Numbered from the stretch's first letter, positions 1-22,525 are shown. The stretch is DNA of 45,281 bases from Methanotrichaceae archaeon (GCA_963803145.1 CAWDLW010000029.1:1-45281), one strand, 5' to 3'. Numbers and translations are program-made. Notes: generated from the sequence alone by a model not told the origin.

Positions 1-13
1 TCGTCTGTGAAGC

Positions 14-120
14 AATATAACAGTTTGCAAAATATAATAAATAGATTCGATGACAGACCATATTCTATAGATACTATAACTTCCACAGGAATATGGGAGT
101 AAGCTTGCAACTCATAATTC
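14..120 (+). repeat. ORB-like dispersed module, copy 1 (degenerate)
   Basis: AATATAAC..ATAATAAATAGA..CAGACCATATTCTATAGATACTATAACTTCCACAGGAATATGGGAG aligns with the copies at 2414, 5401 and 10901; lacks one TTCTATAGA unit. Confidence 0.75.
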
Positions 121-526
121 ATCCCGCAAGCTATTGCACTCGACCTGAGATATAGGTGCGGAGCTTTGCAGAGTTGCTACTTGCAATCCATAGTTTTTCT
201 TCAATATCGATGCAGTAATTATCACAAAACCCCATTACCAGTAGGGTTAAGAAATAGTACCGTTGCATAAGCATTGTTGTTGCAATATAAATCGAATCAC
301 TGTGACTTATAAACAAAGTAAGTCGAACAACTGCTTTATATAGATATAATTTAATGAATATAGTGATATGGTTTTTAAATAGGCAACCTATATATTTAAG
401 GGATATAGATTCCTACTGTGGCGCGATATATACAAAAATCAGAAGAAGTTAGTTTTGCGCCATCTGATCTTGCTTTTCTTATACTTAATTTTCGTTTACT
501 TATTAGTGGAGTAATGGAGGGATATA

Positions 527-1198
527 ATGTTCAACATCAATGGACTTTATGGAATCAAAGGCGTGATGTTCGATTGCTACAAGACTCTTATTGATATCAA
601 GACTGACGAGAGGGACTTGAAGACCTACGAGCCAGTAAGCAAGTGGCTCAAGTATCACGGCATCAATATCTCCCCTCAAGATCTGATGAATGAGTACAGG
701 TGGAGATGCAAGGAAGAGTTGAATAGAAGGGGAGAGTGGCACTGCGAGCTAAAGGTGGAGGATGTCTTCAGTGAGATCTGCCGACAGCATGCCTCCTGGC
801 ACATCAATGATATCATTGTAGGCATTGAAGCGGCGCGACTCTTTAGAGCTGCCTCAGTAAGGAGGCTCCAGCCTTTTCCCCAGAGCGTGCGGCTTTTAGA
901 AAAGCTGAAAGGCTATCCGCTGGGAATGGTCTCAAACGGCCAGAGGATCTTCTCCGAGCTGGAGCTAAGACAACTAGGCCTTTATAGCTACTTCAATTTC
1001 GTTATATTCTCATCCGATCTCGGATACAAAAAACCAGATTCCAGGATTTTTATGGCAGGAGCTGGTAATTTAGGATTGCTGCCTCATGAGATTCTTTACA
1101 TTGGGGATTCATGGGATAAGGATATTTACCCTTCTCGCAACATCGGCATGAAAGCCATGCACATCGAAGATGCCTGGAGGCACTTTGGGGTGGCTTGA
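527..1198 (+). CDS. HAD-superfamily hydrolase (paralog 1)
   Basis: Motif I FDCYKTLID, motif II VSNG, KKPD, motif IV GDSWDKDI; GGAGG RBS upstream. Confidence 0.92.
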   Translation: MFNINGLYGIKGVMFDCYKTLIDIKTDERDLKTYEPVSKWLKYHGINISPQDLMNEYRWRCKEELNRRGEWHCELKVEDVFSEICRQHASWHINDIIVGIEAARLFRAASVRRLQPFPQSVRLLEKLKGYPLGMVSNGQRIFSELELRQLGLYSYFNFVIFSSDLGYKKPDSRIFMAGAGNLGLLPHEILYIGDSWDKDIYPSRNIGMKAMHIEDAWRHFGVA

Positions 1199-1211
1199 GG
1201 AATCAAATGCA

Positions 1212-2171
1212 TTATGAGTCAATAGCCTTCAAACAGGCAATGGCTTCCCTAAGGATGTACCCTCCTCGATCTGGATCTATTCTCAGCCGGTTCATCCTCA
1301 GGAGTCCCAGGCTCATATAGAACGGCAAAGCTTTTGTAAAGCTCTTGAACTCGGATAGCCCCCGGCTATATTGCCATAAGAAATGGCCTATATAGGGCTC
1401 GGCTCTGCTATCATCATTTTTATGCATTGCAAAATAGTGTTTGAGTTCCGCAGCCATGATTCCCAGATCGTGAACTGGGTTGGCATGAAGCCTTGCACTC
1501 TCAAAATCCAGGGCATAGACCTTCTCGCCATCAAACACATAGTTAACGGGATTTGCATCATGATGGATCATACAGCCGGTTGACCGATCTAATAGTGTAC
1601 TATACCACCAATCGCCAAGTAATTGATTAAAGGTCTCTTCGAGTTCCTTATTCAAGTGCAGCTGGTCCAGGGTTTGGTGAAATTTATAGAAATCTCCCTC
1701 CTTGTGGTAATGCGATAGAGTGCTGTCATGAAGCTTCCTCAGTAGATGTGCTACTGCAGTTAATCTATCATACAGTCCCTCCTCACTTTTCATGTACATA
1801 TAGAGGGGTTTGCCTTGGATGTATTCAGTGACCAGCACGCAGCTGAATTGCTTTTTTGTCGCCAGAGGCCTTGGAACATCTATGACCTTTTCAACTATCT
1901 TCAGGTTCTTGAACTCCCTTTTCATAGACTCCTCTGAATCATAATTCTTCTTCCAACCGGTGGGTTCGGCATAGAACTTGGCTATAACACTATAGTCTTC
2001 ACCCAAAAACTTGTACCTGCAAACTGTATGAGAGGCGGGCTCTATCTTATAGACAGCTACTTTGCAAGACTTGTTGTGAATTCTCTCACCAAGGATATCT
2101 ATTAGCCAATCTCTGAAGTAATCTCCTCTCCCGAGAGTGTTAACGTGATGTTCTTTGAGCACTTTTATCAA
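1212..2171 (-). CDS. Aminoglycoside phosphotransferase/choline-kinase-like kinase (paralog 1)
   Basis: HxDxxxxN (HHDANPVN) and DFE motifs; IAKFY lysine; TTG start. Confidence 0.88.
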   Translation of the reverse strand: MIKVLKEHHVNTLGRGDYFRDWLIDILGERIHNKSCKVAVYKIEPASHTVCRYKFLGEDYSVIAKFYAEPTGWKKNYDSEESMKREFKNLKIVEKVIDVPRPLATKKQFSCVLVTEYIQGKPLYMYMKSEEGLYDRLTAVAHLLRKLHDSTLSHYHKEGDFYKFHQTLDQLHLNKELEETFNQLLGDWWYSTLLDRSTGCMIHHDANPVNYVFDGEKVYALDFESARLHANPVHDLGIMAAELKHYFAMHKNDDSRAEPYIGHFLWQYSRGLSEFKSFTKALPFYMSLGLLRMNRLRIDPDRGGYILREAIACLKAIDS

Positions 2172-2413
2172 CCAAAAGTTATTTTAAATATGATATTGAT
2201 TGATTTAGTCGTGAAATCGTTTCATTAATTTGAAATTTCCTTAGCTGATTAGCTTTATTAGCTCGCCACACAACAGCACTCAAAGGATCACCCATCTGTA
2301 CATCAAGACGCGAAGGCTGTTTGGCATTCGTTACAGTCTGGATGACATTCATTCCAAGCTCGCAATTTTCGCGCAAATAAACTTGCCTCATTTTCATATC
2401 CTTTCAGGATAAG

Positions 2414-2552
2414 ATATAACTGTTTTCTACTTATAATAAATAGATATAGTACTGGATCATGTTCTATAGATTCTATAGATATTATAATTTCCACTGGAAA
2501 TTAAGAGGTTTGTTTGCAATCCCTAATTAATATTAGGGCCAATTGTAAGCTA
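2414..2552 (+). repeat. ORB-like dispersed module, copy 2
   Basis: Ungapped alignment to 5402-5540 (constant offset 2988); TTCCACTGGAAATTAAGAGG at 2489-2508. Confidence 0.9.
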
Positions 2553-2692
2553 GCCCAAAAAGAGTTGAGGTATAGGTTCATCGCTACAAGTAGGTCAAAG
2601 GATTGTTGTCTTATATTGCTGCCTCTCGGGGCGATGGCAGAGCAAAACCGAGGTGCATACGTTCGCCCTTGAGATGGATAATATTCATGGTA

Positions 2693-2724
2693 AGGCGGAG
2701 AGACCAACTATATTCTCTTCGCCT
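2693..2724. terminator. GC-rich hairpin downstream of the GT4 gene (possible terminator or element end)
   Basis: AGGCGGAGAGA-N10-TCTCTTCGCCT, 11-bp stem with one G-T pair. Confidence 0.4.
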
Positions 2725-2801
2725 GTTGGTGTTAGATATCGGATAAAATATTTATGCCTGTTAAGCAATATAAAAGAGGTCAATATTGATAAGGAATTTT
2801 C

Positions 2802-3947
2802 TCATTTTGCGATTTGATTGATGCCGTAATAAATTGCCTCTGTATTTTTGGCTATCGTGTTCCAATTGAACTCCTTTTCAATCCTCTCATTGCCCGCCTT
2901 GGCTAGATTTTCCATCTCGCCAGGGTTATCGAGAAGGCGATTTATACACCATGCCAGAGATTCGGGCTGTATATAGGCTAAAAGGCCATCCTTGAAGTTC
3001 CTTATTATGCTTACCGCCTCTGTAGCCACAACCGGCTTGCTTGCATCCCAGGCTTCAAGGACTATTAGTCCAAACGGCTCATTTCTGCTGGGCACACATA
3101 CCATATTACATGCATTTAGAAGGGCCTCCTTCTCAGGCTCTGCAACATAACCTAAAAATCGGCATTCTTTAGCCACCCCAAGCTCTCTAGTCCTTTCTTT
3201 GCACTTTTTCCTCAAACTCCCGTCGCCTGCGAAGATGAACACAATATTCCTGTGTTGTTTCACTATTTTAGGAACAGCCTCTACTAGCAGATCAGGTCCT
3301 TTTTGATAAGCCATCCTGCCGCAAAAGAGCACAATTTGCGAGCTTTTTCGTATGCCATACCTCTCTTTTAATCTGGAAGAATTAACGTCCTTTTTCATTT
3401 TTCCCTTGGTTATGCCATTGGGCACGATACTTATCTTACCAGCAGGAATAGCGTATATAGACATAATCTCTTTCATCAGGCGTTTACTTGTGACAATCAC
3501 TTGCGAAGCTTCATTCATGCCCTGTCTCTCTCGGCGGATTATCTCCTTGTACGATCCGCCTCTTCCTTGCTCAGTGCTATGTATCGTCAAGACATAAGGA
3601 ATTCCAAAATCCCTTTTCAACCTGATCAGCGCTGGGACTGGATGCCAGTCGTGGCCGTGCAGGATATCGAACTTGCCGAAAGTATCCTGCACCACAAGGA
3701 AGCGGTCATAAAGAGCATTACACATGCTGTCCATCTTTTGTACAAGATCTCCAGAGGAATCGGAATCTACCCTCTGATAATTGACACCGTTAATGCAATC
3801 ATAGAGGTTAAAATCCCCTCGCCTTGTGAACACGTGCAACTCGTGTCCCTCTTTAGCCAGGCTCACAGAGATCTCAGAAACGTGGGGAGCAATACCTCCA
3901 ACCTTAATTGAGTAGAGGCTTTCCCAGGAGAACATCCCGATCCGCAT
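2802..3947 (-). CDS. Glycosyltransferase family 4
   Basis: GGIAPHV N-terminus, HGHDWH, GRMAYQKG, EPFGLIVLEAW (E-x7-E). Confidence 0.93.
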   Translation of the reverse strand: MRIGMFSWESLYSIKVGGIAPHVSEISVSLAKEGHELHVFTRRGDFNLYDCINGVNYQRVDSDSSGDLVQKMDSMCNALYDRFLVVQDTFGKFDILHGHDWHPVPALIRLKRDFGIPYVLTIHSTEQGRGGSYKEIIRRERQGMNEASQVIVTSKRLMKEIMSIYAIPAGKISIVPNGITKGKMKKDVNSSRLKERYGIRKSSQIVLFCGRMAYQKGPDLLVEAVPKIVKQHRNIVFIFAGDGSLRKKCKERTRELGVAKECRFLGYVAEPEKEALLNACNMVCVPSRNEPFGLIVLEAWDASKPVVATEAVSIIRNFKDGLLAYIQPESLAWCINRLLDNPGEMENLAKAGNERIEKEFNWNTIAKNTEAIYYGINQIAK

Positions 3948-3999
3948 GATGCCACCTAATTCCAGAATTCAGATAAGTTTGTACTGATGGAGTAATTAT

Positions 4000-4944
4000 C
4001 TACCTGATGGCCCTTAAACATGCGTTAGCCTCTCTAACAACATAGTCCCTCTCCTGGGATTCGCTCTTCCACCTGGCCATTCTGAGGAGCCCCATGCTCA
4101 TGAAGAAGGGGAGCGCCTGGGTAATCTCGTGAAATTCGTTTTCGCTATGGCTGTAGTTCCAGAGAAAATGGCCTATGTAGGGTTCAGCCCTCTCTGCGCC
4201 CCTTCGGTTCCAGCCGAAGAATTTCTTCAGCTCAGCAGCCACAACTCCCAGATCGTGAACAGGATGAGCCTTCTCCCAGGCGCTCTCGAAGTCAAGGGCA
4301 TAGACTCGATCGTATTGGAATATGTAGTTCGCAGGATGGGCATCGTTGTGAATCATGCAGCCTCTGATTCTATCCAGGCGTGAGCTATACCACCAGTCTC
4401 TCAGAAGATAGTTATACTTCTCACGAGCATGTCCATAAAGTCCCATCTGGTCAAGGATCTTGCAAAATCGGGCGAACTCCTCCTCTTTTCGATATTCTGT
4501 CGCTGTATTATCATGAAGGCTTCGCAGCAGATACGCTAGTAGGGTAAGCCTATCGTAGAGGTCGTCTTCGCTTCCTATGTATTTGTTCAGGGGTTTGCCC
4601 TTAACATATTGAGTAATCAAAGCGCAGTTGAACTTTTTATTCCTGGCCAGCGGGCGCGATATATTTATGATTCCCTCTACCTTTTTTAGCTTCTCGAACT
4701 CCTTATTCATTGCCCTCTTGGCATTATAATTTCTGTTACTGCCTGTGGGTTCGGCATAGAACTTGGAAACAACGCCGAAGTCTTCGCCCTTGAATTCATA
4801 TCTGCAAACAGTATGTGAGGCAGGGATTTTGTAAACTCTGACCTTGCATCTATCGTTATGTAGCTCATCCTCAAATTTGTGCACCAGCCAATCTCTGAAT
4901 ACGTTGCCGGGCTCTAATGTGTCAACAAGCCTTTGAGATGCCAA
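4000..4944 (-). CDS. APH-like kinase (paralog 2)
   Basis: HNDAHPAN and DFE motifs; shares SHTVCRY, KFYAEPTG and AEPYIGHFLW with paralogs 1 and 3. Confidence 0.88.
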   Translation of the reverse strand: MASQRLVDTLEPGNVFRDWLVHKFEDELHNDRCKVRVYKIPASHTVCRYEFKGEDFGVVSKFYAEPTGSNRNYNAKRAMNKEFEKLKKVEGIINISRPLARNKKFNCALITQYVKGKPLNKYIGSEDDLYDRLTLLAYLLRSLHDNTATEYRKEEEFARFCKILDQMGLYGHAREKYNYLLRDWWYSSRLDRIRGCMIHNDAHPANYIFQYDRVYALDFESAWEKAHPVHDLGVVAAELKKFFGWNRRGAERAEPYIGHFLWNYSHSENEFHEITQALPFFMSMGLLRMARWKSESQERDYVVREANACLRAIR

Positions 4945-5025
4945 TTATCCCACCACATAAAATAGTCAATAAAATGACCCTCCTAAAGTATTTAGTAATG
5001 TAAATGACACATTTAAGATATAGAT

Positions 5026-5187
5026 TTATTGGTAAGCCTGAACGTGCTCAGTACATTGCTGTAACCCACATTTCGCAGTAAGAAAAATTATAAGAAAGAA
5101 TATGAAGCTAATAATAAAGCATTCTCGAAATAGAGAAAGAAAAAGGAGTGCTGCTAAAACCAGAGCCAATATTGCATATTTTCTCAT
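5026..5187 (-). CDS. 53-aa hydrophobic ORF (small membrane protein or signal-peptide relic)
   Basis: MRKYAILALVLAALLFLSLF...; AGGTGA RBS 5 nt upstream of the ATG; below the ORF-track cutoff. Confidence 0.45.
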   Translation of the reverse strand: MRKYAILALVLAALLFLSLFRECFIISFIFFLIIFLTAKCGLQQCTEHVQAYQ

Positions 5188-5400
5188 GACATTTCACCTT
5201 TTCTCCTTTTTAATTACGATAGTAATCGGGCGTATATGATCAGAATATATAATGCATTTTTAGATAATTTTTATATAATTCTGCATTTAGCCTTATAGCG
5301 GTTCTCTAGACTCAAAGAGTTCCTCCTATAATTCTCTTCTCAGTTTGCCGGTATTGTTAGCTGGAGAATTAACCGATTAAAAAGTCGTTCTCAAGCACAC

Positions 5401-5540
5401 AATATAACCGATTCCCAAATAAAGTAAGTAGACATTATATCAGGCTATACTCTATGGATTCTATGCATACTATAATTTCCATAAGAAATTAAGGGGTTTG
5501 CTTGTAATCCTTAATTTATATAAGAGCCAATAGTAAGCTA
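5401..5540 (+). repeat. ORB-like dispersed module, copy 3
   Basis: 101/140 identical and ungapped versus 10901-11040; TTCCATAAGAAATTAAGGGG at 5477-5496. Confidence 0.9.
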
Positions 5541-5690
5541 TGAGATAGTCAATTAATAGAAGCTTTTTTCTTATGTCTATAAGTTATCCACTGGCCAGGG
5601 TCTCAAAACGTGGCATATCCTAAGGACAGCCGGGAGATGGTTTGAAAGCTGTAGAATAGCTGATTAAGGTACGAAACGTATGGGATGGTG

Positions 5691-5745
5691 CGAAGGGATG
5701 GAGAAGAGATTATTAAGCCGATACCCAGAGGTCCATTCCTTCGCC
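5691..5745 (+). repeat. 55-bp conserved hairpin element, copy A
   Basis: 40/55 ungapped identity to 10791-10845; stem GAAGGGATGGA/TCCATTCCTTC. Confidence 0.8.
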
Positions 5746-5852
5746 ATCGAGATAGGCGCTGATTTGAGGAGGCTAGTGAGCATCCCTCCCACGAGTCTTC
5801 TTGCTGGAGTTGCCTTGTTGATAGTTGGGCAAAATATCCATGCTCAATAAGG

Positions 5853-5912
5853 AATATAACCGTTTCTCAAATATAATAAATAGCCCGGTTATCATACCAT
5901 ATTCTATAGATT
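5853..5912 (+). repeat. ORB-like module, 5' half only (copy 5)
   Basis: AATATAACCGTTTCTCAAATATAATAAATAG..ATCATACCATATTCTATAGATT; stops before the ORB-like box. Confidence 0.75.
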
Positions 5913-6256
5913 TGAGGCTCTGGAGTATTCTACTTTGGCCAGGGTGAAATAGAATATGATCCCATGCACTATATGAGGATGCTGAAGAGGTGACGGAGCA
6001 AATTTCCCCGGCCATTAGCGAGGTTGCGAAGGAAACGGCAATGCTACTCATGCTGCATGGGATAGTTCCTGCCTTGAGGAGCTGGTAAAGAATTCTGATA
6101 GAGTGACCTACTTCGATGAAGGGCTGAGGCTAGGAGCTTGAGCCCAATAAAAAATAAAGTTTCCCTTGCCGGTATTTTATTCTACGCCGCAAAGTGCGAG
6201 GTGCGCCCGTTTGACTGGACTTATGATTTGCCGATGCTTAAGCTGTAAATCATTGC

Positions 6257-7114
6257 CTACCGGGACATGGACATAGATGTCATCTCCCCCTTTAAGGATG
6301 TAATAATATCTCTCGCATTTCTCCTTCCCTCTAGTGCAGCATTAGAATTATCTATGTCCTCTAGATATTTAGACAGCTTTTCTTTATATGTATAGCTATC
6401 TTCAACGCTGCTCAATATATGATCCAAAACCCCTTCTCCGGACCACTGTTTCAGCCTTCTGTGAGCGGTTTCGTAAGACCCATATTTACGGGGAAGCTCA
6501 CGCCAGCTGCAATTTGTCTGAAGCACATAGAGTATGCCGTTAAGAGCCCTCCTATCATCTGATCGTTTTCGACCTCTCATGGGCTGAGGCGGCAAGTAAC
6601 GCTTAACTTGGTCCCACTGTTCATCGCTCAGCTCGTCGAACTTATAGCTGCCCCTCTCCAGGAAGTTGTTAATGAGATCAAGTGCTACAAAATAATCTTC
6701 TCTAGGAAAGCGTAACGAAACAGAGAGTTCAACAGTGCAGTTTGCTGTTTTTCTTGAATATATGCTGCTTTGATTAGGCCAGACTGGATATATATTTGGA
6801 TGGGCATCATATCGCCAAGCACACAGCTTATCTCCCTCATGTCCCAATATTCGATAACAGAACCAGTCGTTGACCTCGGGATGCTTGTGGATCCTATCTC
6901 CGAGCGTCCTTATCAGTATTATCAAGAATTTCTCCACATCTTTCATAGAATAGAACTCTATCCACATTATGCCAGGTTCGTTCTCTTCGCAGGAATTGCA
7001 GGTCATGATTCCCGCATCCCAAATAGCCTTAAGAAGCGGCGCGATCCCTGCATCAACATCTATGAGATCCTGGCCTCCTGGAAATAAGACCTTCGTCTGA
7101 TTGTGATCGAACAA
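6257..7114 (-). CDS. Fusion of an unknown N-terminal domain with an IS5-family transposase N-terminal (DUF4096-like) HTH domain; no DDE domain
   Basis: C-part ELSDEQWDQVKRYLPP..GRKRSDDRRALNGILYVLQTNCSWRELPRKYGSYETAHRRLKQW matches the IS5 N-terminal signature; GGGGG RBS-like run upstream. Confidence 0.8.
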   Translation of the reverse strand: MFDHNQTKVLFPGGQDLIDVDAGIAPLLKAIWDAGIMTCNSCEENEPGIMWIEFYSMKDVEKFLIILIRTLGDRIHKHPEVNDWFCYRILGHEGDKLCAWRYDAHPNIYPVWPNQSSIYSRKTANCTVELSVSLRFPREDYFVALDLINNFLERGSYKFDELSDEQWDQVKRYLPPQPMRGRKRSDDRRALNGILYVLQTNCSWRELPRKYGSYETAHRRLKQWSGEGVLDHILSSVEDSYTYKEKLSKYLEDIDNSNAALEGRRNARDIITSLKGEMTSMSMSR

Positions 7115-7491
7115 AGTCTACATCCCCCCAATAAATGTAGCTCAACATACGATGTTTTGATGAGCCGTATTATCCCTCTTCATTGGTCCTTTATTATCAC
7201 ATTTGGCAGTCAATAGCATATCTGGCAATCATCATTGCATTCAATCAGAAGAACGCCAAAGTCAAGCTATAACTCTCCAGAGAATAACTCCACATCGATC
7301 TATAAGAAGGTTGCGATCAAAATTATCAATAGGTGATATCTTTTCTCCTGTATCCGGAGTAAGCGTATTTTATAATTTATATTTGCTCTCATAATGATGA
7401 TTTTTTCTTATTAAAGAAATATTATTTCATAAAAAATATATTAAATCTATTAATTCTTTTTCTCAAAAATCTATTTTTAACTCTTGATTAC

Positions 7492-9690
7492 TCAGTGTAT
7501 GGCAACATCCCATTTCCAGCCTAGGGACTTTGCTTTGGCAAAAGCATCATCAGATTCCTCTTTGTGGCCAAGCTTGTGCAGAACCTCTCCTTTAAAGTGC
7601 CATGCGGCGGGATCTGAATAGTTAATCTCGAGGGCCTCAAGGAATGAATCAAGTGCCTCCTCATATCTCAGAAGACGCTGAAGTGCAATCCCACGATAGA
7701 TCCAAGCCGATATAGAAGAAAGATCGATCTCCAATGCTTCATCAAAGCACTTAATGGAATCTTTTAAGCAGCCTAAATTGATGAAGGTAACTCCTTCGTT
7801 AACCCATGGAGTAGGGTCACAGCTATCGAGCTGAATTGCCCTGTCGTATGAGATAATAGCATCCTCGTAGCTGCATAAATATGCAAAAGCATTACCTCTG
7901 TTGTTCCAGGCATCAAAGTATTCCGGATCGATCTCTGTAGCCTTATTAAAGCAGTCCACAGCATCGTTATATCTATGCATATCACATAGGATGTTGCCTT
8001 TATTGTTCCAGGCTATGGCATATTTAGGATTGGCCTCTATTGCGCTTTCAAATGATTTAATTGCCTCCTCATAGAATTCTATGTTCTTTAGAGTTACACC
8101 TCTATTGTTCCATGCGTCTGCGTTTTTAGAATCCATATCGATGGCTTTCTCAAAGGATCTTATGGCATCTTCATATTGACCCATTTCATCCAGAACAGCA
8201 CCTTTATTATTCCAAATTGAGGATTTGGTTGAATCTAACTCTAACGCTTTGTCAAAACACTTTATGGATTCACTATAGCGCACTAGCTTTTTCAAAATGA
8301 TGCCTTTATCGTTCCAGAAGTTCGGGTTAGAGAAATCTATTTCTATGGCCTTATCATAACAATGAAGGGCTTCGCTGTGATTGCCTAGCTCATAAAGGCA
8401 GTGCCCTTTATCGGACCAGATTCTCTCTTGTAAGGGATCTATTTTGAGAGCCTCATCATAGGCAGCCAAAGCATCATCATGTCGGAACAAGTGTTTATGC
8501 AGTATTTCTGCTTTAATGCACCATGCTAATAGGCTCTTCTGGTTAATCTTTGTAATATAATCAAAGCAATCATAGGCCTTTTGATAATGACCCAGCCTTT
8601 TAAGCAGCAGTCCTTTATTATTCCAGGCATTTATATCCAGTGAATTAATATTAAGCAATGTTTCATAACAACCTATGGCTTCTTTATATAGGCCTAGCCT
8701 ATCTAGAGTAACTCCTTTATTATTCAGTGCTTCTTTATATTGTGGATTGATGCGTAGCGCCTCATCAAAGGACCCCAGAGCATCCACATAAAGCCCCGAC
8801 CTGTATTGGATGAGGCCTTTACCATACCATGCCTCTGAAATCAAAGGATTAATCTCTATCGCTTTCTGATAGCATTTTGCAGCATCGTCGAAATTCTCAT
8901 TTTTATAAAACTCTGAGCCTGCTCTCAGTAAGTAAACCACAATATCCTCTTTTACAGGGACTAAGAAATTGCCGGAGGGTGAACTGGCAATGGAAAGAGC
9001 TGCATGGTCTAATGCCTGCTTAATGCCGACTCCCTTTTCTAATATCCTCACTGCTTCATCGCCACGCTTTAGGTGTTGAAGTGCGAGATATTTGCCATAC
9101 CAGGCCTCCTTGAATTGTGGATTGATTACAATTGCCTCATCAAAGGCTTCTACTGCCTCAAGATAGCGGCCTATGTTTCCGAGCGCAGCACCCTTGCCGA
9201 CCCACGCATCAATGAATGATTTGTTGATTTTAACGGCCTCATCATAAGCTGCAACGGCCTTCTGATAGCGGCCTAGCTTGCTCATGGCGTTGCCTACACC
9301 ATACCATGCATCAATGAGTTGAGGATTGACCTCAAGGGCCTTTTTATAACAATATATGGCCTCTTCATATCTGCCAATCCTGTAGAGAACGCTACCTTTG
9401 CTTTTGAGAGCCTTGATTGACTTGGGATTTATCCAGAGTGCCTTATCATAAAAATTTAGCGCATCCTCAAACTGACCCAATTCTGAGAGCGTTAAGCCTT
9501 TATCATACCATGATGTCTCGATCGGTGATTGGATCTCCGATGCTTTATCATAAATGCTGATTCCTCTGTACAACTCCGGGGTGGCCAAAATAGGAGCCGG
9601 CCCTTTTACAGGCTCTGTTATCATTGTAGCTTTTATGTTGTCTGTAGCTCCTTTAGAGAGTATAGGCTCAGCCTTTTTGCTATCTCCCAT
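7492..9690 (-). CDS. Large tetratricopeptide-repeat protein
   Basis: Many consecutive 34-aa TPR units (AWxxKGxxLxxLGxYxEAxxxFDxALxIxP); frame is open to 9867 but ATG 9690 is the more plausible start. Confidence 0.93.
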   Translation of the reverse strand: MGDSKKAEPILSKGATDNIKATMITEPVKGPAPILATPELYRGISIYDKASEIQSPIETSWYDKGLTLSELGQFEDALNFYDKALWINPKSIKALKSKGSVLYRIGRYEEAIYCYKKALEVNPQLIDAWYGVGNAMSKLGRYQKAVAAYDEAVKINKSFIDAWVGKGAALGNIGRYLEAVEAFDEAIVINPQFKEAWYGKYLALQHLKRGDEAVRILEKGVGIKQALDHAALSIASSPSGNFLVPVKEDIVVYLLRAGSEFYKNENFDDAAKCYQKAIEINPLISEAWYGKGLIQYRSGLYVDALGSFDEALRINPQYKEALNNKGVTLDRLGLYKEAIGCYETLLNINSLDINAWNNKGLLLKRLGHYQKAYDCFDYITKINQKSLLAWCIKAEILHKHLFRHDDALAAYDEALKIDPLQERIWSDKGHCLYELGNHSEALHCYDKAIEIDFSNPNFWNDKGIILKKLVRYSESIKCFDKALELDSTKSSIWNNKGAVLDEMGQYEDAIRSFEKAIDMDSKNADAWNNRGVTLKNIEFYEEAIKSFESAIEANPKYAIAWNNKGNILCDMHRYNDAVDCFNKATEIDPEYFDAWNNRGNAFAYLCSYEDAIISYDRAIQLDSCDPTPWVNEGVTFINLGCLKDSIKCFDEALEIDLSSISAWIYRGIALQRLLRYEEALDSFLEALEINYSDPAAWHFKGEVLHKLGHKEESDDAFAKAKSLGWKWDVAIH

Positions 9691-10217
9691 GATTCTTTGA
9701 TGTATCTCGTCCGAGAATCTCTTTTTAGCATAGAGCCACATTCGGCTATAGCGATTGAAGAATAGTCTATAATCTAAATTAAAGGGCCTTGACGTGATAT
9801 ATGTCATTCTCGAGGCTATAAATGCAATGGTAGTCGTATATAGGGCAGATAGTTCGTATGGAGGCATGACATAACCCAGTTAATTTATTAATTAAGATCC
9901 AACAAGTATTAAAAAGTTTTGCTATTATCACTAAGGTAGAATTTTTTAATTTAATTCCTTAAAATCGAGAAGATCAATTTAGGTTCAATACTATCAGAAA
10001 TTTTTAGCGAAATAAGATAAATAATTATTTTTTAAATTACTTTAGTAGAATATCAATAGGAAATTGTCGGATATTAGCACGTTATCGATTTCATGGTTTG
10101 GATTCCCGATATTATCTTTAAGCCAATCTTTGAGGATTAAGCACTTTAAAAACTGACTTGAAGTTCAATACAGCTAAGAATGGTTTCAACTGTTATTAGA
10201 ATATGCGATGGCAATCT

Positions 10218-10502
10218 TCAACTGATTCCCCAATCCATTGCTCTTCGCATAATATCCATTGCCCAAGCTTTTTCTTCATCAGTTAATGGTGGCTCCAGAA
10301 ATCTCTGGCCGTTTTCATTTTTATGCATCCTGTCTTTGATTTCATCCCATTTCATTCTATCTTCATAAGGCAATGCTTTCTTAAACTCCTGCCACTTGTC
10401 ATAATAATCCCAATGAAAAATGCCCTTTTCGGCATCAGACATGACTTTATTAATATCTGTCTTTTCTACTAAATTAGCCTCTTTGTTTATGCATAATTTC
10501 AC
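10218..10502 (-). CDS. Hypothetical 94-aa Trp-rich protein
   Basis: GTG start with GGAGG RBS; upstream promoter block shared with 26381-26455. Confidence 0.7.
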   Translation of the reverse strand: MKLCINKEANLVEKTDINKVMSDAEKGIFHWDYYDKWQEFKKALPYEDRMKWDEIKDRMHKNENGQRFLEPPLTDEEKAWAMDIMRRAMDWGIS

Positions 10503-10535
10503 TATACAGCCTCCAAAGTGATTTTAATTTCGTTG

Positions 10536-10610
10536 TATAAAGTTCTAATCGAAATAGAATATAGGCAGAGCTAAAAAAGTTAAACTAGTAATTTCTGTTT
10601 ATAGAATATT
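10536..10610 (-). promoter_or_regulatory. Bipartite promoter module, copy 1
   Basis: 28/29 identity to 26381-26409 plus 17/20 identity to 26436-26455 at identical spacing; contains TTTATA box on the minus strand. Confidence 0.8.
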
Positions 10611-10727
10611 CGCCTAACATTATCTGCCGAAGCAGAAACAATAGTGCAATCTGGTCACCTATGGCTAGGTCTTTAAGGTGATTCATCGAAAATCAGGGCA
10701 GTGTGCTATATTTGCAGTTATTTGGAA

Positions 10728-10793
10728 GTGTGGGCAACAGGCAAGACTCTCGAAGAGTGCCGCAAGGAGCTTATCTCGGCTATCGAGGGCTGA
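10728..10793 (+). pseudogene. HicB-family antitoxin fragment
   Basis: VWATGKTLEECRKELISAIEG-stop resembles the HicB core (GxTxEE); no start codon; truncated at the hairpin element. Confidence 0.65.
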
Positions 10794-10845
10794 AGGGATG
10801 ATGAAGCGGATATCGAGCCAATACGAGGAGGGTCATCCCTTCGCC
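10791..10845 (+). repeat. 55-bp conserved hairpin element, copy B
   Basis: Stem GAAGGGATGA/TCATCCCTTC; compensatory change versus copy A. Confidence 0.8.
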
Positions 10846-10900
10846 GTTTGCTGAGCTGAGATATATATTTGATCTCACAGAATATTCGTGCTCTGATGTG

Positions 10901-11040
10901 ATTATAAACATTTTCCATATAAAGTAAATATACATGTTATCAGACTATATCCTATATATTTTATAGATACTATAATTTCCACTGGAAATTAAGGGGTTAA
11001 TCTACACCCCTTAATTAAGCTTAAAGGCGACTGTAAGATA
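10901..11040 (+). repeat. ORB-like dispersed module, copy 4
   Basis: TTCCACTGGAAATTAAGGGG at 10977-10996; perfect 11-bp hairpin AATTAAGGGGT/ACCCCTTAATT. Confidence 0.9.
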
Positions 11041-11706
11041 ATCCGAAAGCTTGGATTTTGGGTTTGTCCTGCAAATATGACGGCTAATTAGTGAAGACTG
11101 TAGCCAATGAACTATCGCAGCTTACAATATATTATAACTCACACAAAAAATGCCTAGTTCGAATCTTTTTCCACCTGCAGTCAATTTATCAAACGGTCTA
11201 TCTTAATCTTATACTGTCAGAAGTATGTATATAGTGTAATTGCTCAATGCCAATCTATTATCACTATTTGTTATATTTGGACAATCTATATATTTTATCC
11301 AAAGGCATGACAATTCTATGGGCAGCAAGTCTGCTCCATAAGTGGAATCTCCTTCAGGTGTGAATTGGCTGCATAGAGGATTTTTATCGCATCCTAAACT
11401 GCATCTGCTCTTGGCTTGGTGCGGTAAATCCTCTAAATACCTCTTAATTAGAAGCTTAATAAACTCATCTTGTCTCTATTCTAGTATTCCTCCAAGTCTT
11501 CTTGTTCTCTGGACGCCAAATGACAATAGAATAAGTAAATCTACAGAGGACATTTTACTTCTTATTCTATTTAGGCAAACGATATATTTCGCCTGGGCAA
11601 CCATTTTTAGAGGACCATTAACATATTCCTCAATTAGGACAAAATCGCGCAAAAATTTAGAAGATTTAGAGGATTTCTTGAATATGATAAAGTAAGGAGG
11701 ATAAGA

Positions 11707-12036
11707 ATGGAGCTGTTAATAGATGATAGGGATAACTTCTTCAATGCTTGTCAGAATTTGGTTTGCGCAGATCCAAGAGATCTCTCACTAAAAGAAAGGA
11801 TTGGGATGCTTAAGATCATGAGGGCTGCTATGATCTATCTGACAAGAATAGGGAGACAACTACTTGAGGGGACTGATAATGAAAATTTCTATGATTTTCA
11901 TGTTGCGCGCCAAATAAGCTGCAAAGACTTTGGATTTATCGGCAGGTCATCATTGGAGTACCTTGATGAGATAATTGATGATTTGGAGGACGAATTAGAC
12001 GTATCAGAAGGTTTAAAAGAATCCGAAGGGGATTAA
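11707..12036 (+). CDS. Hypothetical 109-aa protein with acidic C-terminus
   Basis: AGGAGG RBS, ATG start, natural-looking composition; no family recognised. Confidence 0.7.
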   Translation: MELLIDDRDNFFNACQNLVCADPRDLSLKERIGMLKIMRAAMIYLTRIGRQLLEGTDNENFYDFHVARQISCKDFGFIGRSSLEYLDEIIDDLEDELDVSEGLKESEGD

Positions 12037-12516
12037 TAAGAGGGTATCACAAGAATGAACCAGATATCATATCAATATTTAAGAGTACTTATGCTATTTT
12101 ATTTAAATAAGTTCCTCGACTGCCTCAAAGCATTCTCCTAATAGGCGTTATTGCCGGAATTTGTGGCCGTCGTTGCGTTGTCTACTATCACGGGCAATCC
12201 AGATCCATTTATAGTGCATCCTTAAATTTACTTCCCGACAAAATAAGCATTAAGAAATCTGATGGCTGGGAAGATTTAGCTATGTATGAGGGGATCTCTA
12301 GGCCCATAGCCATTGCTACCGCCCTCTTGAACCTGGCATTTTCTCTATTATGTATGGATGAGAACCTTGCTTACCAATGACATTTGAAATGGCCTTCAAT
12401 ACAATTTGAGGTTGACCAGTTAGCATATTCCCAAATTAATATATACTATAAACATTAACATTTATCAAAACTATAGGCATTCTATAGATATTTTGTAAGG
12501 AGTTTATGTAAGGAGC

Positions 12517-13320
12517 TTGATGCCAATGATATACTTATCGGCTATATTGGTTATTGTTTTCTTGGCGAGTTTGACATTAATCAGCGTTCAGGCGCAACAA
12601 TCATCGTCTCCAGCAGTTCCAAACGTGGTCCTGGTGCATGGCGCATGGGCGGACGGATCGAGCTGGAGCAAGGTCATTCCGCTGCTGCAGGAAAAGGGCT
12701 ATAACGTTACCGCTGTGCAGATTCCTTTGACCTCGTTAGCTGATGACGTTAATGTGACGAGTCATGTATTATCTATGCAAAAGGGTCCTGTAATTCTCGT
12801 CGCCCATTCATATGGCGGCGTTGTGATAACTGAAGCAGGAGCCAATGCATCTAATGTTGTCGGACTGGTTTATATTACTGCGTTCGCCCCCGATACTGGT
12901 GAAGCCCTCGGACAGCTCAATGCCCGGATGCCACCTGCTCCTGGCCTGGCAAACATTCGTCCCGATGCCTACGGATTCCTGTGGATTGACCCTAAAGCCT
13001 TTCCAGATTCATTCGTTCAGGACGTCGATCCTGTTCAAGCCAGGATTATGGCAGCAGTACAAAAGCCGCTTAATTCAAGCATTTTCGGCGAAAAAGTCAC
13101 CCAGGCAGCCTGGAAATCTAAGCCCTCCTGGTATCTGGTATCAGAGAACGACAGGATGATCAATCCCGACTTAGAGCGCTTTATGGCGAAACGAATAGGG
13201 GCAAAGGAAGTTGTTTCGATACCATCCAGCCATGCCTCGCTGGTATCGCATCCTAATGAGGTAACCAGGCTGATAACGGACGCGGCAAATGCTACCGCAA
13301 ATGCCACGGCAACCAAATAG
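12517..13320 (+). CDS. Secreted alpha/beta hydrolase (Abhydrolase_6-like)
   Basis: Signal peptide; [13 protein letters not shown]; AHSYGG nucleophile elbow; D and H of the triad (DRMI, SSHAS). Confidence 0.9.
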
Positions 13321-13331
13321 GAGGATATCAA

Positions 13332-14153
13332 ATGTCCGCAATCAAAACCAAAGATGGAACGAAAATTTATTATAAGGACTGGGGCAGTGGACAGCCTATT
13401 GTCTTCAGCCACGGCTGGCCGCTCTCTGCAGATGCGTTTGAAGACCAGATGTTCTTTCTGGCCTCTCGTGGATACCGCTGTATCGCCCATGACCGCCGGG
13501 GACATGGCCGATCGAGCCAGCCATGGAATGGCAATGATATGGACACCTATGCCGATGACCTCGCGGAGCTTGTCGAAGCGCTCGATCTGAAGAATGCAAT
13601 TCATGTCGGCCATTCCACCGGGGGCGGCGAAGTCGCACGCTATATCGGCCGCCATGGCACGAAGCGCGTGGCCAAGGCTGTGCTGATTGGCGCTGTTCCC
13701 CCACTGATGCTGAAGACGGCCGCCAATCCGGGAGGATTGCCTATCGAGGTGTTCAATCAGAACCGTGCCGCCGTCCTTGCCGACCGTTCGCAGTTCTGGA
13801 AGGATCTCAGCATGCAGTTCTATGGCTATAACCGACCGGGAGCAAAGATCTCTGAGGGCGTGCGTGAATCGTTCTGGCTCCAGGGGATGATGGCTGGCTT
13901 GCCGGCATCCTACTTCTGCATCAAGGCTTTCTCTGAGACGGATTTCACTGAGGATCTCAAGAAGATCGATGTGCCGACGCTCATCCTCCACGGCGACGAC
14001 GATCAGATAGTGCCGATAGGGGCTTCGGCTCTGATGTCATCCAAGCTAGTCAAGGGCGCCACGCTGAAGATTTACAAGGGTGCGCCGCACGGCATGTGTA
14101 CGACCCTCAAGGACAAGGTCAACGCTGACCTGCTTGCTTTCATCAAAGCGTGA
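13332..14153 (+). CDS. cpo: Non-heme chloroperoxidase/perhydrolase (alpha/beta hydrolase)
   Basis: [49 protein letters not shown]; markedly GC-rich. Confidence 0.92.
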
Positions 14154-14405
14154 GCGAGCGTTGGCTAAAATCAAAGTCCTATCACGGCCACCGGCACACT
14201 TCGCTCTGACTTTCCCTATGTTGCGCTGCCGGTATCCGCAGGAACGTGAAGCCACCGATGAGCAACATGACCTTTTCATCGCCCGGGCTGGACGAGCCCC
14301 AACTTCGTCGGGACCACAACCCCGACTGTCCTCGAGACGCACGGGAAGAGTCTATCTGATCGCTGACTGACCGTATGACTCCTAGGTAGCTATCCAAAAA
14401 CATAT

Positions 14406-14585
14406 ATGCGATTCATGTTGGCCATTCGACGGGCGGCGGCGAAGTCGTCCGTTGTATCGGCCACCACGGTACCAAGCGCGTGGCCAAGGCCGTGATGATT
14501 GGTGCGGTTCCGCCATTAATGCTGAAGACGGCCACTAATCCATGAGAATGCCAATTGAGGCGTTCAATCATCAAAGCGTGAGCGA
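14406..14585 (+). pseudogene. Internally deleted second copy of the chloroperoxidase gene
   Basis: [45 protein letters not shown] matches 13594-13759, then jumps to the gene end ATCAAAGCGTGAGCGA (14142-14157). Confidence 0.88.
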
Positions 14586-14670
14586 CTGTTAATCAGCAGG
14601 GTCAGCTTCGATTTGGATCTCTCTCTGAGCGGATGCAAGATCTGTAAAGATAACCTGCAAACGCTGGGAA

Positions 14671-14761
14671 GGCCGCCGCATAACCATAGTAGGCTATGGA
14701 TCATGCACAGGCCTTCAAGTGCATGAGCATCTACGGCGATACCTGGAACGGTAATGGCTTT
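14671..14761 (+). pseudogene. Papain-like (C1A) peptidase C-terminal relic
   Basis: GRRITIVGYGSCTG / frameshift / FKCMSIYGDTWNGNGF resembles GHAITIVGY..F.C.NSWG..WG.NG; catalytic H and N positions decayed. Confidence 0.5.
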
Positions 14762-14775
14762 GAGACTTTGAGATT

Positions 14776-15423
14776 ATGCACGTTCAACCTACAGAGTATC
14801 CAGATCCAGAGTATCAAGAGCATATACTAAATACAGATCGTTTGATGGCGCTGGCAGACGGTATCTTCGCCTTTGCCATGACACTGCTGGTGCTCAATAT
14901 CGATGTTCCTACGAGCATACTCGTGACCTCTGCCAACATGGCCATATCTCAATACCTGATAAATCTCATGCCCAAGTTAGGGATTTATGTCATTGCATTT
15001 CTATCATTAGGAGCATTATGGTTCGGGCACCAGAGGCTATTCCATTTCTTCAAGTACATTGATGCCAGGCTCCTCTGGATTAACGTCATTTTTTTGATGC
15101 TCATTGCACTTGTACCCTTCACCACAAACCTGGGCGGAGAGTATGGCAATTACCAGATGGGCATCCTGCCGATGGACATGGATCTCCTGGTGATAACCTT
15201 TATCTTCATCTATCAGTGGCACTATATCTTATCCAGACCTAAGCTGCTTAGCCATGAGCTTAATCCCTTGGAGGTAGCCAGAATCAAGGAGAGGTATATT
15301 GTTCAGACCGCCATGTGCCTAGCGGCTATAAGCATCTCTTTCTTCAGTCCTGCATGGAGTACATTGCCGTTTATCCTCATTCCCTATCTCTCCATAAGCA
15401 AAAGATATCGGCTGATCAAATGA
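14776..15423 (+). CDS. TMEM175-family (DUF1211) potassium channel-like membrane protein
   Basis: RLMALADGIFAFAMTLLVLNI, WxxHxRxF, LVPFTT; about six hydrophobic segments. Confidence 0.88.
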   Translation: MHVQPTEYPDPEYQEHILNTDRLMALADGIFAFAMTLLVLNIDVPTSILVTSANMAISQYLINLMPKLGIYVIAFLSLGALWFGHQRLFHFFKYIDARLLWINVIFLMLIALVPFTTNLGGEYGNYQMGILPMDMDLLVITFIFIYQWHYILSRPKLLSHELNPLEVARIKERYIVQTAMCLAAISISFFSPAWSTLPFILIPYLSISKRYRLIK

Positions 15424-15450
15424 TGGTTTAGAGGTGATTAAACTATAAGC

Positions 15451-15876
15451 CTATTCAGTCGGCCCTGCTGCGGTTCTCACAAGCTCTCCTATGACAGAGA
15501 TATTTTTCAATAGCTCATCGGGCAGACCATGGCGCTCTTTAAGATATTCCGGTTTATTGTAAGAAAGCCAGACTTTTCCCTGTTCATCCTCCCAGACTAA
15601 AACCTTTAGAGGTAGATCTATAGCTATACTGGGCGTTGCCAAAATCAATGGCGTTCCCGCCTTGGGATTGCCGAACATCAACATCTGCGATGGCCGCATC
15701 TTCAGGCCTGCTTTTTCTGCGTCATCTTTGAAGTTGATATGGGCAAAGATTTTCAATCCTTTCCGATTAACTAAAGATGTAAGTCTATCAATGGTTCCCT
15801 GGATTGAATGCTCGCTTAAAACGCTAGCGATGCCTTTATCCTCGTCATGCACACACATATTGACCTCCGCTAGCAT
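15451..15876 (-). CDS. DUF302-family protein
   Basis: IFAHIN..AGLKMRP..FGNPKAGTPL..LPLKVLVWED..VWLSY. Confidence 0.88.
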   Translation of the reverse strand: MLAEVNMCVHDEDKGIASVLSEHSIQGTIDRLTSLVNRKGLKIFAHINFKDDAEKAGLKMRPSQMLMFGNPKAGTPLILATPSIAIDLPLKVLVWEDEQGKVWLSYNKPEYLKERHGLPDELLKNISVIGELVRTAAGPTE

Positions 15877-16201
15877 ACTATTTTTAATGCTCTTTATATA
15901 AGAAATTTTATGACGATCTATCTCTAAGGTATTCCTACAATTTATAGTTGTATTATCAATCCATCAACGGGAGGTCTCTTCATTATATTGACTACAATGA
16001 TAATTCATCCTGCATGCACTCTATGGAAAGATTCGAGAATCTGAAAATCGCGTAAGATAGAAATAGATATCTATTTTATTGAATTTAAACAGCGATCAAA
16101 CTATTTATCGAAAGTGCTGAAGAACTCAACTTCAAAACACACTGATTCCAAGATATCTGAAGTTTTCTATAACCTTTTTCAAAAAAAGTTTGATTGTAGA
16201 A

Positions 16202-17925: not shown

Positions 17926-18476
17926 CTTCTTCCTCCTTGAAGTTAACTAAGCGTTGTCACCACAAAAGAGAAATATACCTTTTGATCATAGAATATATTG
18001 GTATATTTACAATTGATGAATGACATGTGGGAATAGAATGTATAGATAAAAAATAGATCAAAATACTTAATGTTTATGATCGTTCTCTATATTTATCGAG
18101 ACACTTAGGTTCTGCTCAACACCTATGAGTATGAAGATGGAGATGATTCCTAGAGCGGCTCTTCATATCACATGGAAATTGTATTTACGATTGTGCTAAA
18201 ATCTATATAGATTCAGGATTGAATTATTGGATATATGTTTTATTTAGGAAAAATATATGAAGGGATTGACTATGTTTGTATATAAATGAGGGCAGATACA
18301 AAGGTAAATATCGTTATGTATGTTAGTGCTATCATCCTTCTTCTATTTCTAGTAGTTTACCATTTTTATACAGGAAGATCCATAAAGATATAATGCAAGA
18401 TTCTGGGTTTTCTTATGATATTCCCTGCCTGTAAACATAAACGCCGCAATAAAATTGGAAGCTTGAACTGATAAAT

Positions 18477-22086: not shown

Positions 22087-22118
22087 TCTCGTTTTATCTC
22101 TCCGCCAGTTCCAAGATT

Positions 22119-22494: not shown

Positions 22495-22525
22495 GTTTAT
22501 ATCTCCTATAGCTTTAAAACACGAA

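Follow-up and report, generated by a model that had tools for sequence, protein, structure and literature searches.

What is the element that recurs, always in the same orientation, between unrelated gene blocks at one end of an archaeal contig? The DNA in question is a stretch of 45,281 nucleotides from a Methanotrichaceae archaeon (GCA_963803145.1, CAWDLW010000029.1), referred to here as the window, whose first 11 kb carry five copies of a non-coding module of ~140 bp. We find that this module is not free-standing but belongs to a lineage-specific composite intergenic repeat. Judged by sequence, the full units of this repeat carry an origin recognition box (ORB) of the same type as the ORBs beside cdc6 at the chromosomal origin. 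We refer to the genome of the window as G000, to two congeners in one Methanotrichaceae genus as G001 and G002, and to contigs by C-numbers. The window is the start of contig C29, and copy 1 lies at the contig end.

Five co-oriented copies in 11 kb

An earlier note on this DNA had listed five copies in one orientation, three of them alignable without gaps at offsets of 2988 and 5500 and one pair identical at 101 of 140 positions, and our searches recovered all of this. A repeat search of the window returned a five-member family of 63 nt (10-72, 2409-2471, 5397-5459, 5849-5911 and 10897-10959; 63-79% identity) and three gap-free copies of 146 nt (2415-2560, 5403-5548 and 10903-11048; 72% identity each to the reference) at spacings of 2988 and 5500. 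Pairwise blastn gave 76.4% identity over 140 nt for 2414-2552 against 5402-5540 and 72.5% over 138 nt for 5403-5540 against 10903-11040.

A profile hidden Markov model trained on the three full copies was searched with nhmmer against all 51 contigs of the assembly (4,132,845 bp). Five matches resulted, all on the + strand of C29 within window positions 1-11051: the training copies (E 1e-41 to 5e-43) and two copies outside the training set, at 13-125 (E 1.8e-13) and 5852-5915 (E 2.2e-6). The profile detected no sixth copy in the 4.13 Mb of G000, the next matches (E 0.13 and 0.34) spanning the ~25-nt ORB alone. Copies in this genome are confined to one 11-kb stretch and co-oriented, not scattered in random orientation. 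The length of the module, which the note took to be conserved, does vary: one 9-nt TCTATAGAT repeat is missing from copy 1, and indels occur elsewhere in the family. A second strain or foreign contigs may be present in the G000 assembly itself (4.13 Mb, 6.77% contamination, versus 3.0-3.3 Mb for the two congeners).

The module is the core of a composite unit

Alignment of the copies from G000 and G002 places the module at the core of a larger intergenic unit of 250-450 bp. Read 5' to 3' on the + strand, a full unit consists of an optional left element, a block that we call box A, two TCTATAGA palindromes, the ORB and an inverted repeat that overlaps the G-string of the ORB. Box A, which is AT-rich and ~70 nt long, is present in every copy (consensus ..GAAATATAACnGTTTCCCAAATAnAATAAATAGA..CATATTCTATAGA). 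In 11 of 24 units from the two genomes it is followed by the second TCTATAGA palindrome, the 20-nt motif TTCCAnTGGAAAT(A/T)AAGGGG and the inverted repeat AATTAAGGGG/CCCCTTAATT, and weaker similarity beyond this repeat reaches ~+240 in some unit pairs.

The left element, ~175 nt long, precedes box A in many units and includes two inverted repeats, GGCGAAGGGAT..ATCCCTTCGCC and GGCGAAGAG..CTCTTCGCC, with GGCGAAG(G/A)G common to both. An nhmmer search with a left-element profile found two left elements and two fragments in the window (Table 1). The left element of unit 5 has a clean internal deletion between two CTTCGCC repeats, and contig C27 opens with another left element (11-172, minus strand). 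A coding role for the left element is ruled out by frames and stops that differ among copies, and it has no match to UPF0150/HicB save the relic upstream of unit 5.

Full units carry an ORB like those at the chromosomal origin

What the earlier note had not recognised is that the module's 3' half is an ORB, TTCCAnTGGAAAT-N3-GGGG. Table 2 of PMC4153887 gives CTTCCAGTGGAAACGAAAGGGGT and GTTCCAGTGGAAATGG-AGGGGTA for the 'Archaea consensus ORB' and the Methanomassiliicoccales consensus, and TTCC and GAA are described as invariant core motifs of the Pyrococcus mini-ORB (PMC1904270). The boxes of units 2, 3 and 5 satisfy the consensus, with a TTCC...GAA dyad and a G-string, at 0-1 mismatch to our search pattern YTCCANWGGAAAYNNNGGGG.

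We searched four genomes with this pattern at up to one mismatch, using the reversed pattern as a control. G000 has seven matches (control, one), three of them beside cdc6 on C17 (39151-, 40187- and 40802+), three in units 2, 3 and 5 and one on C18. The six matches in G002 (control, one) comprise two beside cdc6, three in units and one elsewhere, while three of the five in G001 (control, one) lie beside cdc6. In another family genome, G010, all four matches (control, none) are on the cdc6 contig, at most 3.2 kb upstream of the gene. The 20-nt motif occurs singly in other genera of the family, and three occurrences in G010 lie directly upstream of a Cdc6/Orc1 gene.

The probable chromosomal origin of G000 lies at C17:39151-40855. 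Inverted ORBs at 39151-39170(-), 40187-40206(-) and 40802-40821(+), with a further mini-ORB-like site near C17:40835, flank ~600 bp of intergenic DNA, directly upstream of cdc6 (~40.85-42.1 kb), in which GC drops to 24%. This arrangement is the usual origin layout, and ORBs are likewise found next to cdc6 in G001, G002 and G010. Similarity between the units and oriC is restricted to the 22-24 nt of the ORB. Full copies have 30% GC across their length, with AT-rich DNA immediately upstream of each ORB. Cdc6_C matches in G000 occur on C17 and C44 only, so that no orc1/cdc6 gene adjoins the units by this search, and the ORBs of the window units are one per unit, all direct, without inverted pairs.

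The match on C18 (98719-98738) is a single perfect ORB far from cdc6. At least 10 genomes, from several genera, conserve it at 95-96% over 22-24 nt, and it sits in a conserved intergenic stretch upstream of a gene for a NosD/beta-helix protein, with its G002 counterpart at C1:1876528.

Units occur in two genomes of one genus

A box A model built from sequence only was searched against 105 Methanotrichaceae genomes. Strong matches occur in G000 (5) and G002 (20) and in no other genome of the 105; eight others have 1-3 weak matches each (20-26 bits), and G001, of the same genus and 99% complete, has none. The family is limited to two of the three genomes of one Methanotrichaceae genus.

The expectation that copies cluster in one orientation within one island holds in G000, and G002 again has co-oriented clusters (Table 1). 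Within clusters, the co-oriented fraction is 5/5 in G000 and 7/8, 3/3, 2/2, 2/2 and 2/2 in G002, and five tandem unit pairs occur among the 24 units. A metagenome scan with a box A pattern returned 82 stretches. Two of the 80 that were fetched are genuine members, both on short contigs, one of which has two tandem units. A scan of a genome collection with a hairpin pattern returned 56 stretches, mostly bacterial. Among these, five Methanotrichaceae loci were tested with unit profiles: three (L050, L058 and L065, all from the G002 contig) matched strongly, L042 weakly and L020 not at all, and the 51 controls gave weak hairpin-only matches. No viral contig had the hairpin pattern, and window 5390-5920 had no blastn match to plasmids or phages.

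The units lie in an accessory island beside pstS

Contig C27:1-1451 together with window 1-26716 forms an accessory island of ~28 kb between pstS and a radical-SAM gene. On G001 contig C63, a 312-nt spacer between pstS and the ortholog of window 26717-27858 stands in place of the island. The same pstS is found in G000 at C27:1485-2285. Because G001 synteny joins pstS to the ortholog of window 26717-27858, the reverse complement of C27 would abut the left end of the window, and C27 is its probable left neighbour. On that basis the left element on C27, an ArsC-like gene and pstS lie directly left of the window. Window 1-18400 has no G001 ortholog, just 64-66% paralogs of the GT4 and kinase genes.

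Conservation and rearrangement between G000 and G002

Three of the five window units (1, 2 and 5) have positional orthologs in G002. The module of unit 5 is 76% identical over 233 nt to its counterpart at C1:1919.6 kb, and 28 nt at the ORB (10974-11001) are fully identical; to the right of unit 5, the intergenic sequences of the two genomes cannot be aligned. Since identity among copies is 63-80% and two species keep them at orthologous positions, they are old and not fresh attachment-site (att) scars. This age, with no integrase and no tRNA, speaks against the suggestion that the copies are stacked ends of integrated elements.

The gene block at window 263-5027 (HAD, kinase, unit 2, GT4, kinase) corresponds to G002 C1:2024.7-2028.9 kb, inverted and 110 kb from the G002 region that matches window 6357-18394. 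In each genome a unit stands at either end of the block, and its relocation fits excision and re-insertion by recombination between co-oriented units. Breakpoints at units are nonetheless weak evidence for such an event, because rearrangement is also frequent in unit-free flanks: those of this G002 locus map to G000 as 1-3.5 kb pieces over several contigs. The expectation that blocks between copies vary holds for one multi-gene, unit-bounded block at a different locus, but breaks also fall in unit-free flanks every 1-3.5 kb. GT4-kinase-unit blocks are present as paralogs. The spacer between PhoU-AbrB and TnpB contains two units in G002 and an IS630-like element and no unit in G000.

Several smaller differences were seen between the two genomes. 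G000 has an insertion of ~200 nt between the start of kinase 1 and unit 2 (window 2179-2397, minus strand; a 72-aa open reading frame, ORF, of no family) and another at ~10614-10845 to the left of unit 5, which contains the HicB relic and hairpin 1. A 1.4-kb ISC1217-like insertion sequence (IS; DDE_Tnp_2) of G002, at L011:5572-6972, matches at least nine G000 sites, such as C24:18054-19454 and C8:90172-91571. It is 97% identical between G000 and G002, versus 80-90% for neighbouring genes, which suggests recent exchange or activity, and copies of it adjoin three units in G002.

No mobility machinery is consistently linked to the units

G000 has 13 Phage_integrase matches, none on C29 and the nearest on C27 at 44.0 and 52.1 kb. 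The earlier note had proposed looking for a tyrosine recombinase, tRNA or cdc6 just left of the window; within 8 kb to the left we found no tRNA, integrase or cdc6. There is no tRNA or tmRNA in the window, and seven of eight unit-bearing loci lack one, the eighth holding a single tRNA-Ser. In G002, a tyrosine recombinase lies within 10 kb of one of the seven unit clusters, which starts 4.5 kb from the gene. A repeat scan found no terminal inverted repeats at the unit ends, and no empty site was found for judging target-site duplications. A prior statement that no integrase, transposase or terminal inverted repeats accompany the module in the window is accurate for the first and last of these but not for transposases: the window encodes an IS5-family domain (6257-7114), an IS630-like element (19740-20745) and TnpB (20938-22122), none of which is consistently linked to the units.

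Palindromes as RNA or DNA structures

Rfam returned no match at gathering thresholds for the whole window, nothing relevant at E<=5 for window 1-12000 and L011, and none at E<=1 for eight hairpin loci. The hairpin that follows the ORB was rejected as an RNA structure, with no covariation beyond shuffles (70.5% of cells paired versus 70.4%). Hairpin 1 of the left element has a 9-bp stem that is almost invariant, with a single covarying pair (C-G in seven, U-A in two and U-G in two). Palindromes conserved without covariation would fit protein-binding DNA at least as well as RNA. As for an attC-like architecture (R''-L''...L'-R'), inverted repeats are present, Rfam gives nothing and the post-ORB hairpin lacks covariation.

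The arms of hairpin 1 are common to an inverted-repeat family dispersed in G000, CGAAGGGAT-N25-62-ATCCCTTCG, which has 18 sites at up to one mismatch per arm versus none for a reversed-arm control. The sites include window 5691-5743 and 10791-10843, C25:5723-7976 (six copies), C17:21601, C9:8319, C33:1385, C42:84040, C8:535037, C7:11256, C22:9933 and others. Several members, including the tandem array on C25, have a conserved promoter-like sequence ~25-35 nt upstream, and two (C25:6329 and C7:11256) have compensatory arm changes. Rfam gave no match for the family.

Genes next to the units

For each of the 24 units we recorded the nearest ORF of at least 70 aa to the left and to the right. Five units directly follow another one, in tandem pairs. 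Among the other 19, a leftward-diverging gene begins within ~450 nt in 15. These leftward genes encode five APH kinases, a PstS-like protein, an ArsC-like protein next to pstS, PstB-PhoU, a response regulator, HypF, the 94/147-aa protein, two hypothetical proteins and one IS transposase. To the right, 11 of the 19 units have a co-directional gene. A phosphate theme runs through the neighbours of units, which include PstS, PstB, PhoU, a PhoU-AbrB fusion, HAD hydrolases, Metallophos and a purple acid phosphatase. The tally suggests that box A may serve at least the leftward genes, with the left element between promoter and gene, and that it may also fire rightward. As for a resemblance between box A and the native pstS promoter, the pstS junction of G001 reaches just 7.9 bits (E 0.008 in 600 nt), too low a score to build on.

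A possible regulatory role and its alternatives

Our preferred reading, held tentatively and at somewhat less than even odds, is that the unit is a duplicated promoter/operator module with an Orc1/Cdc6 site that is also a substrate for homologous recombination. Box A would probably be a compact promoter block, possibly firing both ways, and each unit would supply a promoter and operator to the adjoining genes, mainly the leftward-diverging one. Intact ORBs would recruit the Orc1/Cdc6 initiator as a regulator. The family may have spread by local tandem and segmental duplication inside the accessory island next to pstS, a process proposed to account for the clustering, the shared orientation, the tandem pairs and the paralogous GT4-kinase-unit blocks. 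As direct repeats, the units could in turn recombine by homology and so reshuffle the intervening blocks. In favour of this reading stand the identity of the ORBs, the constraint seen between unit 5 and its G002 ortholog, the placement of units beside leftward-diverging genes, the phosphate theme of their neighbours, the signature of duplication and the lack of mobility machinery.

A number of observations weigh against this regulatory reading. Chromatin immunoprecipitation in Pyrococcus, as reported in PMC1904270, found Cdc6/Orc1 essentially only at oriC. A near-perfect ORB is kept in just 6 of 24 units and is degenerate in 5 of the 11 full copies; because so few units keep one, the ORB is not essential to every copy. 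The 28-nt identical run at unit 5 would be expected by chance in one ortholog pair about one time in six, by a rough estimate. With each paralogous block entered a single time, leftward enrichment falls to 10 of 14, and units 2, 3 and 4 lack a co-directional gene on the right. The TATA-like words TTTATA and TAAATA, which are enriched at -40 to -21 of G000 genes, occur on both strands of box A, and sequence does not fix its orientation. The GT4, kinase and HAD genes are not clearly phosphate-related, and what the members of a regulon normally have in common is a short operator, whereas the homology here extends over 250-450 bp. A more specific proposal, which we regard as quite unlikely, is that the units form an extra-origin array of Orc1/Cdc6 sites in control regions of a pstS-adjacent island holding phosphate-acquisition genes, where the initiator would regulate or be titrated and so couple replication initiation or ploidy to phosphate, making the array an archaeal analogue of the DnaA-box regulatory loci of bacteria. 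In Haloferax, phosphate, Orc1/Cdc6 homologs and ploidy have been linked, in an account that names no cis element where it describes this link (PMC12890983).

Other explanations would give the ORB, or the repeat as a whole, a different meaning. The units could be accessory or relic initiator sites, either captured or decayed origin fragments or a working ORB array outside the origin, which might titrate or position Orc1/Cdc6 like a DnaA-box titration locus or be a dormant origin. Their perfect match to the oriC ORBs, the 30%-GC, AT-rich DNA immediately upstream and the many palindromes, as in plasmid and viral origins, all suit such sites, as do the ORBs away from orc1/cdc6 that Table 2 of PMC4153887 lists for Methanomassiliicoccales and the high-affinity in vitro binding of Pyrococcus Cdc6 to a single full ORB described in PMC1904270. 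We nevertheless consider this unlikely, given one direct ORB per unit versus the inverted ORBs that flank an AT-rich stretch at the G000 oriC, the lack of an adjacent orc1/cdc6 gene, the 13 of 24 units entirely without the ORB part and the absence of similarity to plasmids, phages and viral contigs. Similarly unlikely, in our estimation, is a selfish non-autonomous repeat with no host function, resembling a satellite or a MITE (miniature inverted-repeat transposable element) and spread by a trans-acting enzyme or unequal recombination. A narrow distribution (strong matches in 2 of the 105 genomes, and 2 genuine members among the 80 loci fetched from metagenomes), modular units with truncated forms, a presence that differs between species at the PhoU-AbrB/TnpB spacer and three G002 units adjoining a high-copy IS would be in keeping with a selfish origin. 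The missing terminal inverted repeats, which in a MITE would pair the unit ends, are difficult to reconcile with it, as are copies that are clustered and co-oriented instead of dispersed, an identity of 63-80% with no young copies and three orthologous sites retained since the two species split.

The earlier note had offered a cassette-accretion array as one of two readings, and a site-specific system in which units act as attC-like or stacked attL/attR sites for block capture or exchange is very unlikely on present evidence. The parts of that proposal which stand are the clustering, the co-orientation of repeats that part unrelated gene blocks, the accessory island and the one relocated block that is unit-bounded in both genomes at different loci. 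Several G002 spacers also contain single small ORFs (89, 141 and 95 aa at L011), and a tyrosine recombinase gene is found 4.5 kb from where one G002 cluster starts. What does not stand is the machinery: there is no recombinase on C29 or near six of the seven G002 clusters, and no tRNA target. Genes lie on both strands in multi-gene blocks, units are longer than many spacers, synteny breaks every 1-3.5 kb in unit-free flanks and the copies are too diverged for recent att duplications. Comparably improbable is that the units are small non-coding RNA genes, with box A as promoter and a transcript running through the ORB-like stretch into the hairpin, or with the left-element hairpins as product. 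The TATA-like box lies at a distance from the conserved CATATTCTATAG block that suits a promoter, next come a hairpin and T-rich sequence, and the arms of hairpin 1 recur in the dispersed family (18 versus 0 for the control), several members of which have promoter-like upstream sequence and two compensatory changes. Yet the post-ORB hairpin and the nearly invariant left hairpin 1, with its one covarying pair, behave as described above, Rfam has no match, and an RNA role would leave the exact match to the oriC ORB unexplained.

Relation to known systems

The 20-24 nt core of the unit corresponds to the TTCCAnTGGAAA dyad plus AGGGGT G-string of the consensus for archaeal oriC ORBs and mini-ORBs (PMC4153887, Table 2; PMC1904270). 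Unlike oriC ORBs, those of the units are single and direct, spread over 11 kb within a repeated module away from orc1/cdc6, and form no inverted pairs. The orphan ORB3 and ORB4 of 'Ca. M. intestinalis', listed downstream of ftsZ and nifH/E in Table 2 of PMC4153887, are similarly unpaired with no orc1/cdc6 near, but they are single sites, whereas the units are a duplicated module of 150-450 bp with 24 members in two genomes. Integron attC arrays likewise place co-oriented, structured, divergent repeats between unrelated genes in one locus. The units differ from these in lacking an integrase, attI and Pc: no IntI-type recombinase lies by the array, blocks of 1-3 genes occur on both strands, and the 250-450 bp repeats have promoter-like AT-rich cores with no R''/R' recognised.

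Correia, ERIC and REP/BIME elements are bacterial intergenic repeats, among them promoter-bearing repeats and MITEs, that can bring regulatory signals to nearby genes and promote rearrangement; they are dispersed, usually shorter than 200 bp and possess terminal inverted repeats. The units, by comparison, are clustered, co-oriented and without such ends. Clusters of DnaA boxes such as datA provide a bacterial precedent for initiator titration away from the origin, and we know of nothing datA-like shown in archaea. Sulfolobus Orc1-2 recognises a promoter motif different from the ORB. This non-initiator Orc1 paralog is described as a transcription regulator and offers a precedent for an initiator-family protein acting off-origin (PMC9738581). 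Within the collection of papers searched, we found no ORB-bearing repeat family and no description of ORBs in Methanothrix/Methanosaeta. What would be new here is a lineage-restricted, ORB-bearing intergenic repeat family; intergenic repeats and ORBs are each known separately.

Prediction tools use ORBs as markers of archaeal origins, and modules with perfect ORBs far from cdc6 could mislead them. Binding to these ORBs, if it occurs, would give Orc1/Cdc6 targets on the chromosome beyond the origin in a major lineage of acetoclastic methanogens; if the units are duplicated promoters and nothing more, they would represent an ordinary duplication of regulatory regions. The units provide a natural set of variants with an intact ORB, a decayed ORB or no ORB. 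Besides, they mark an accessory island beside pstS that evolves fast, and may explain the reshuffling of its gene blocks.

Gene content of the island

Island genes encode HAD hydrolases, three APH-type kinases, a GT4 glycosyltransferase, a TPR protein, two alpha/beta hydrolases, a split purple acid phosphatase, a PhoU-AbrB fusion, an IS630-like element and TnpB. Table 1 gives the coordinates of units and genes in the window together with the G002 units.

Table 1. Units, genes and related features of the window, and locations of units in G002
Feature	Coordinates	Strand	Description
Unit 1	9..125	+	Box A 9-78 (box A model E 2.5e-15), then degenerate ORB-like stretch 81-100
Unit 2, full	2405..2563	+	Box A 2405-2477, two TCTATAGA palindromes, ORB 2489-2508 with one G-string mismatch
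Left-element fragment right of unit 2	2638..2751	+	Left-element profile E 3.1e-8
Unit 3, full	5319..5551	+	Left-element fragment 5319-5382, box A 5397-5465, ORB 5477-5496 (one mismatch to search pattern)
Unit 4, half	5669..5915	+	Complete left element 5669-5838, box A 5845-5915, no ORB
Unit 4 inverted repeat CGAAGGGAT..ATTCCTTCG	5691-5743	+	Inside left element
Unit 5, full	10768..11051	+	Internally deleted left element 10768-10887, box A 10895-10965, perfect ORB 10977-10996
Unit 5 inverted repeat AATTAAGGGG/CCCCTTAATT	10986-11016	+	Repeat search
HAD-family hydrolase	527..1198	+	Pfam Hydrolase/HAD_2; NCBIfam HAD-IA
APH-family kinase 1	1212..2171	-	Pfam APH E 6.8e-14; start faces unit 2; 63% nucleotide identity to kinase 2
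GT4 glycosyltransferase	2802..3947	-	Pfam Glycos_transf_1, Glyco_transf_4
APH-family kinase 2	4000..4944	-	Pfam APH; start faces unit 3
285-aa protein	6257..7114	-	N-terminal part of ~160 aa of no known family, plus IS5-family transposase N-terminal domain (DUF4096)
791-aa TPR-repeat protein	7492..9867	-	Pfam TPR families
94-aa ORF	10218..10502	-	No known family; G002 ortholog of 147 aa starts at edge of its unit
HicB/UPF0150 relic	10677..10790	+	Pfam UPF0150 E 1.2e-7, 32 bits; profile positions 30-51 of 64; cut where left element begins
Two small genes (117 aa, 109 aa)	11342..12036	+	No known family; right of unit 5
Island part inside window	1..26716	.	Comparison with G001 C63
G002 units, C1	273.8-286.5 kb		Seven of eight units on +
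G002 unit, C1	1401.7 kb		One copy
G002 units, C1	1750.5-1751.0 kb	+	Two units
G002 units, C1	1914.6-1919.6 kb	+	Two units
G002 units, C1	1927.1-1927.4 kb	-	Two units
G002 units, C1	2024.4-2028.9 kb	-	Three units
G002 unit, C3	82.2 kb		One copy

Two gene assignments of the earlier note bear on this list. The HicB relic that it described next to unit 5 is confirmed by the UPF0150 match and is one of 27 such matches in G000. The protein that it called a helix-turn-helix fusion is indeed a fusion, identified here as carrying the IS5-family transposase N-terminal domain; its G002 ortholog is split in two ORFs.

Further to the right, the purple acid phosphatase at window 16202-17925 (minus strand) consists of two overlapping ORFs, an N-terminal one at 17143-17925 and a Metallophos C-terminal one at 16202-17155, and may represent a frameshift or a broken gene. 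Window 18477-24414 encodes the PhoU-AbrB/MazE fusion (18477-19484), followed by the IS630-like element and TnpB, and a third pair of HAD and APH-kinase genes lies at 22526-24414.

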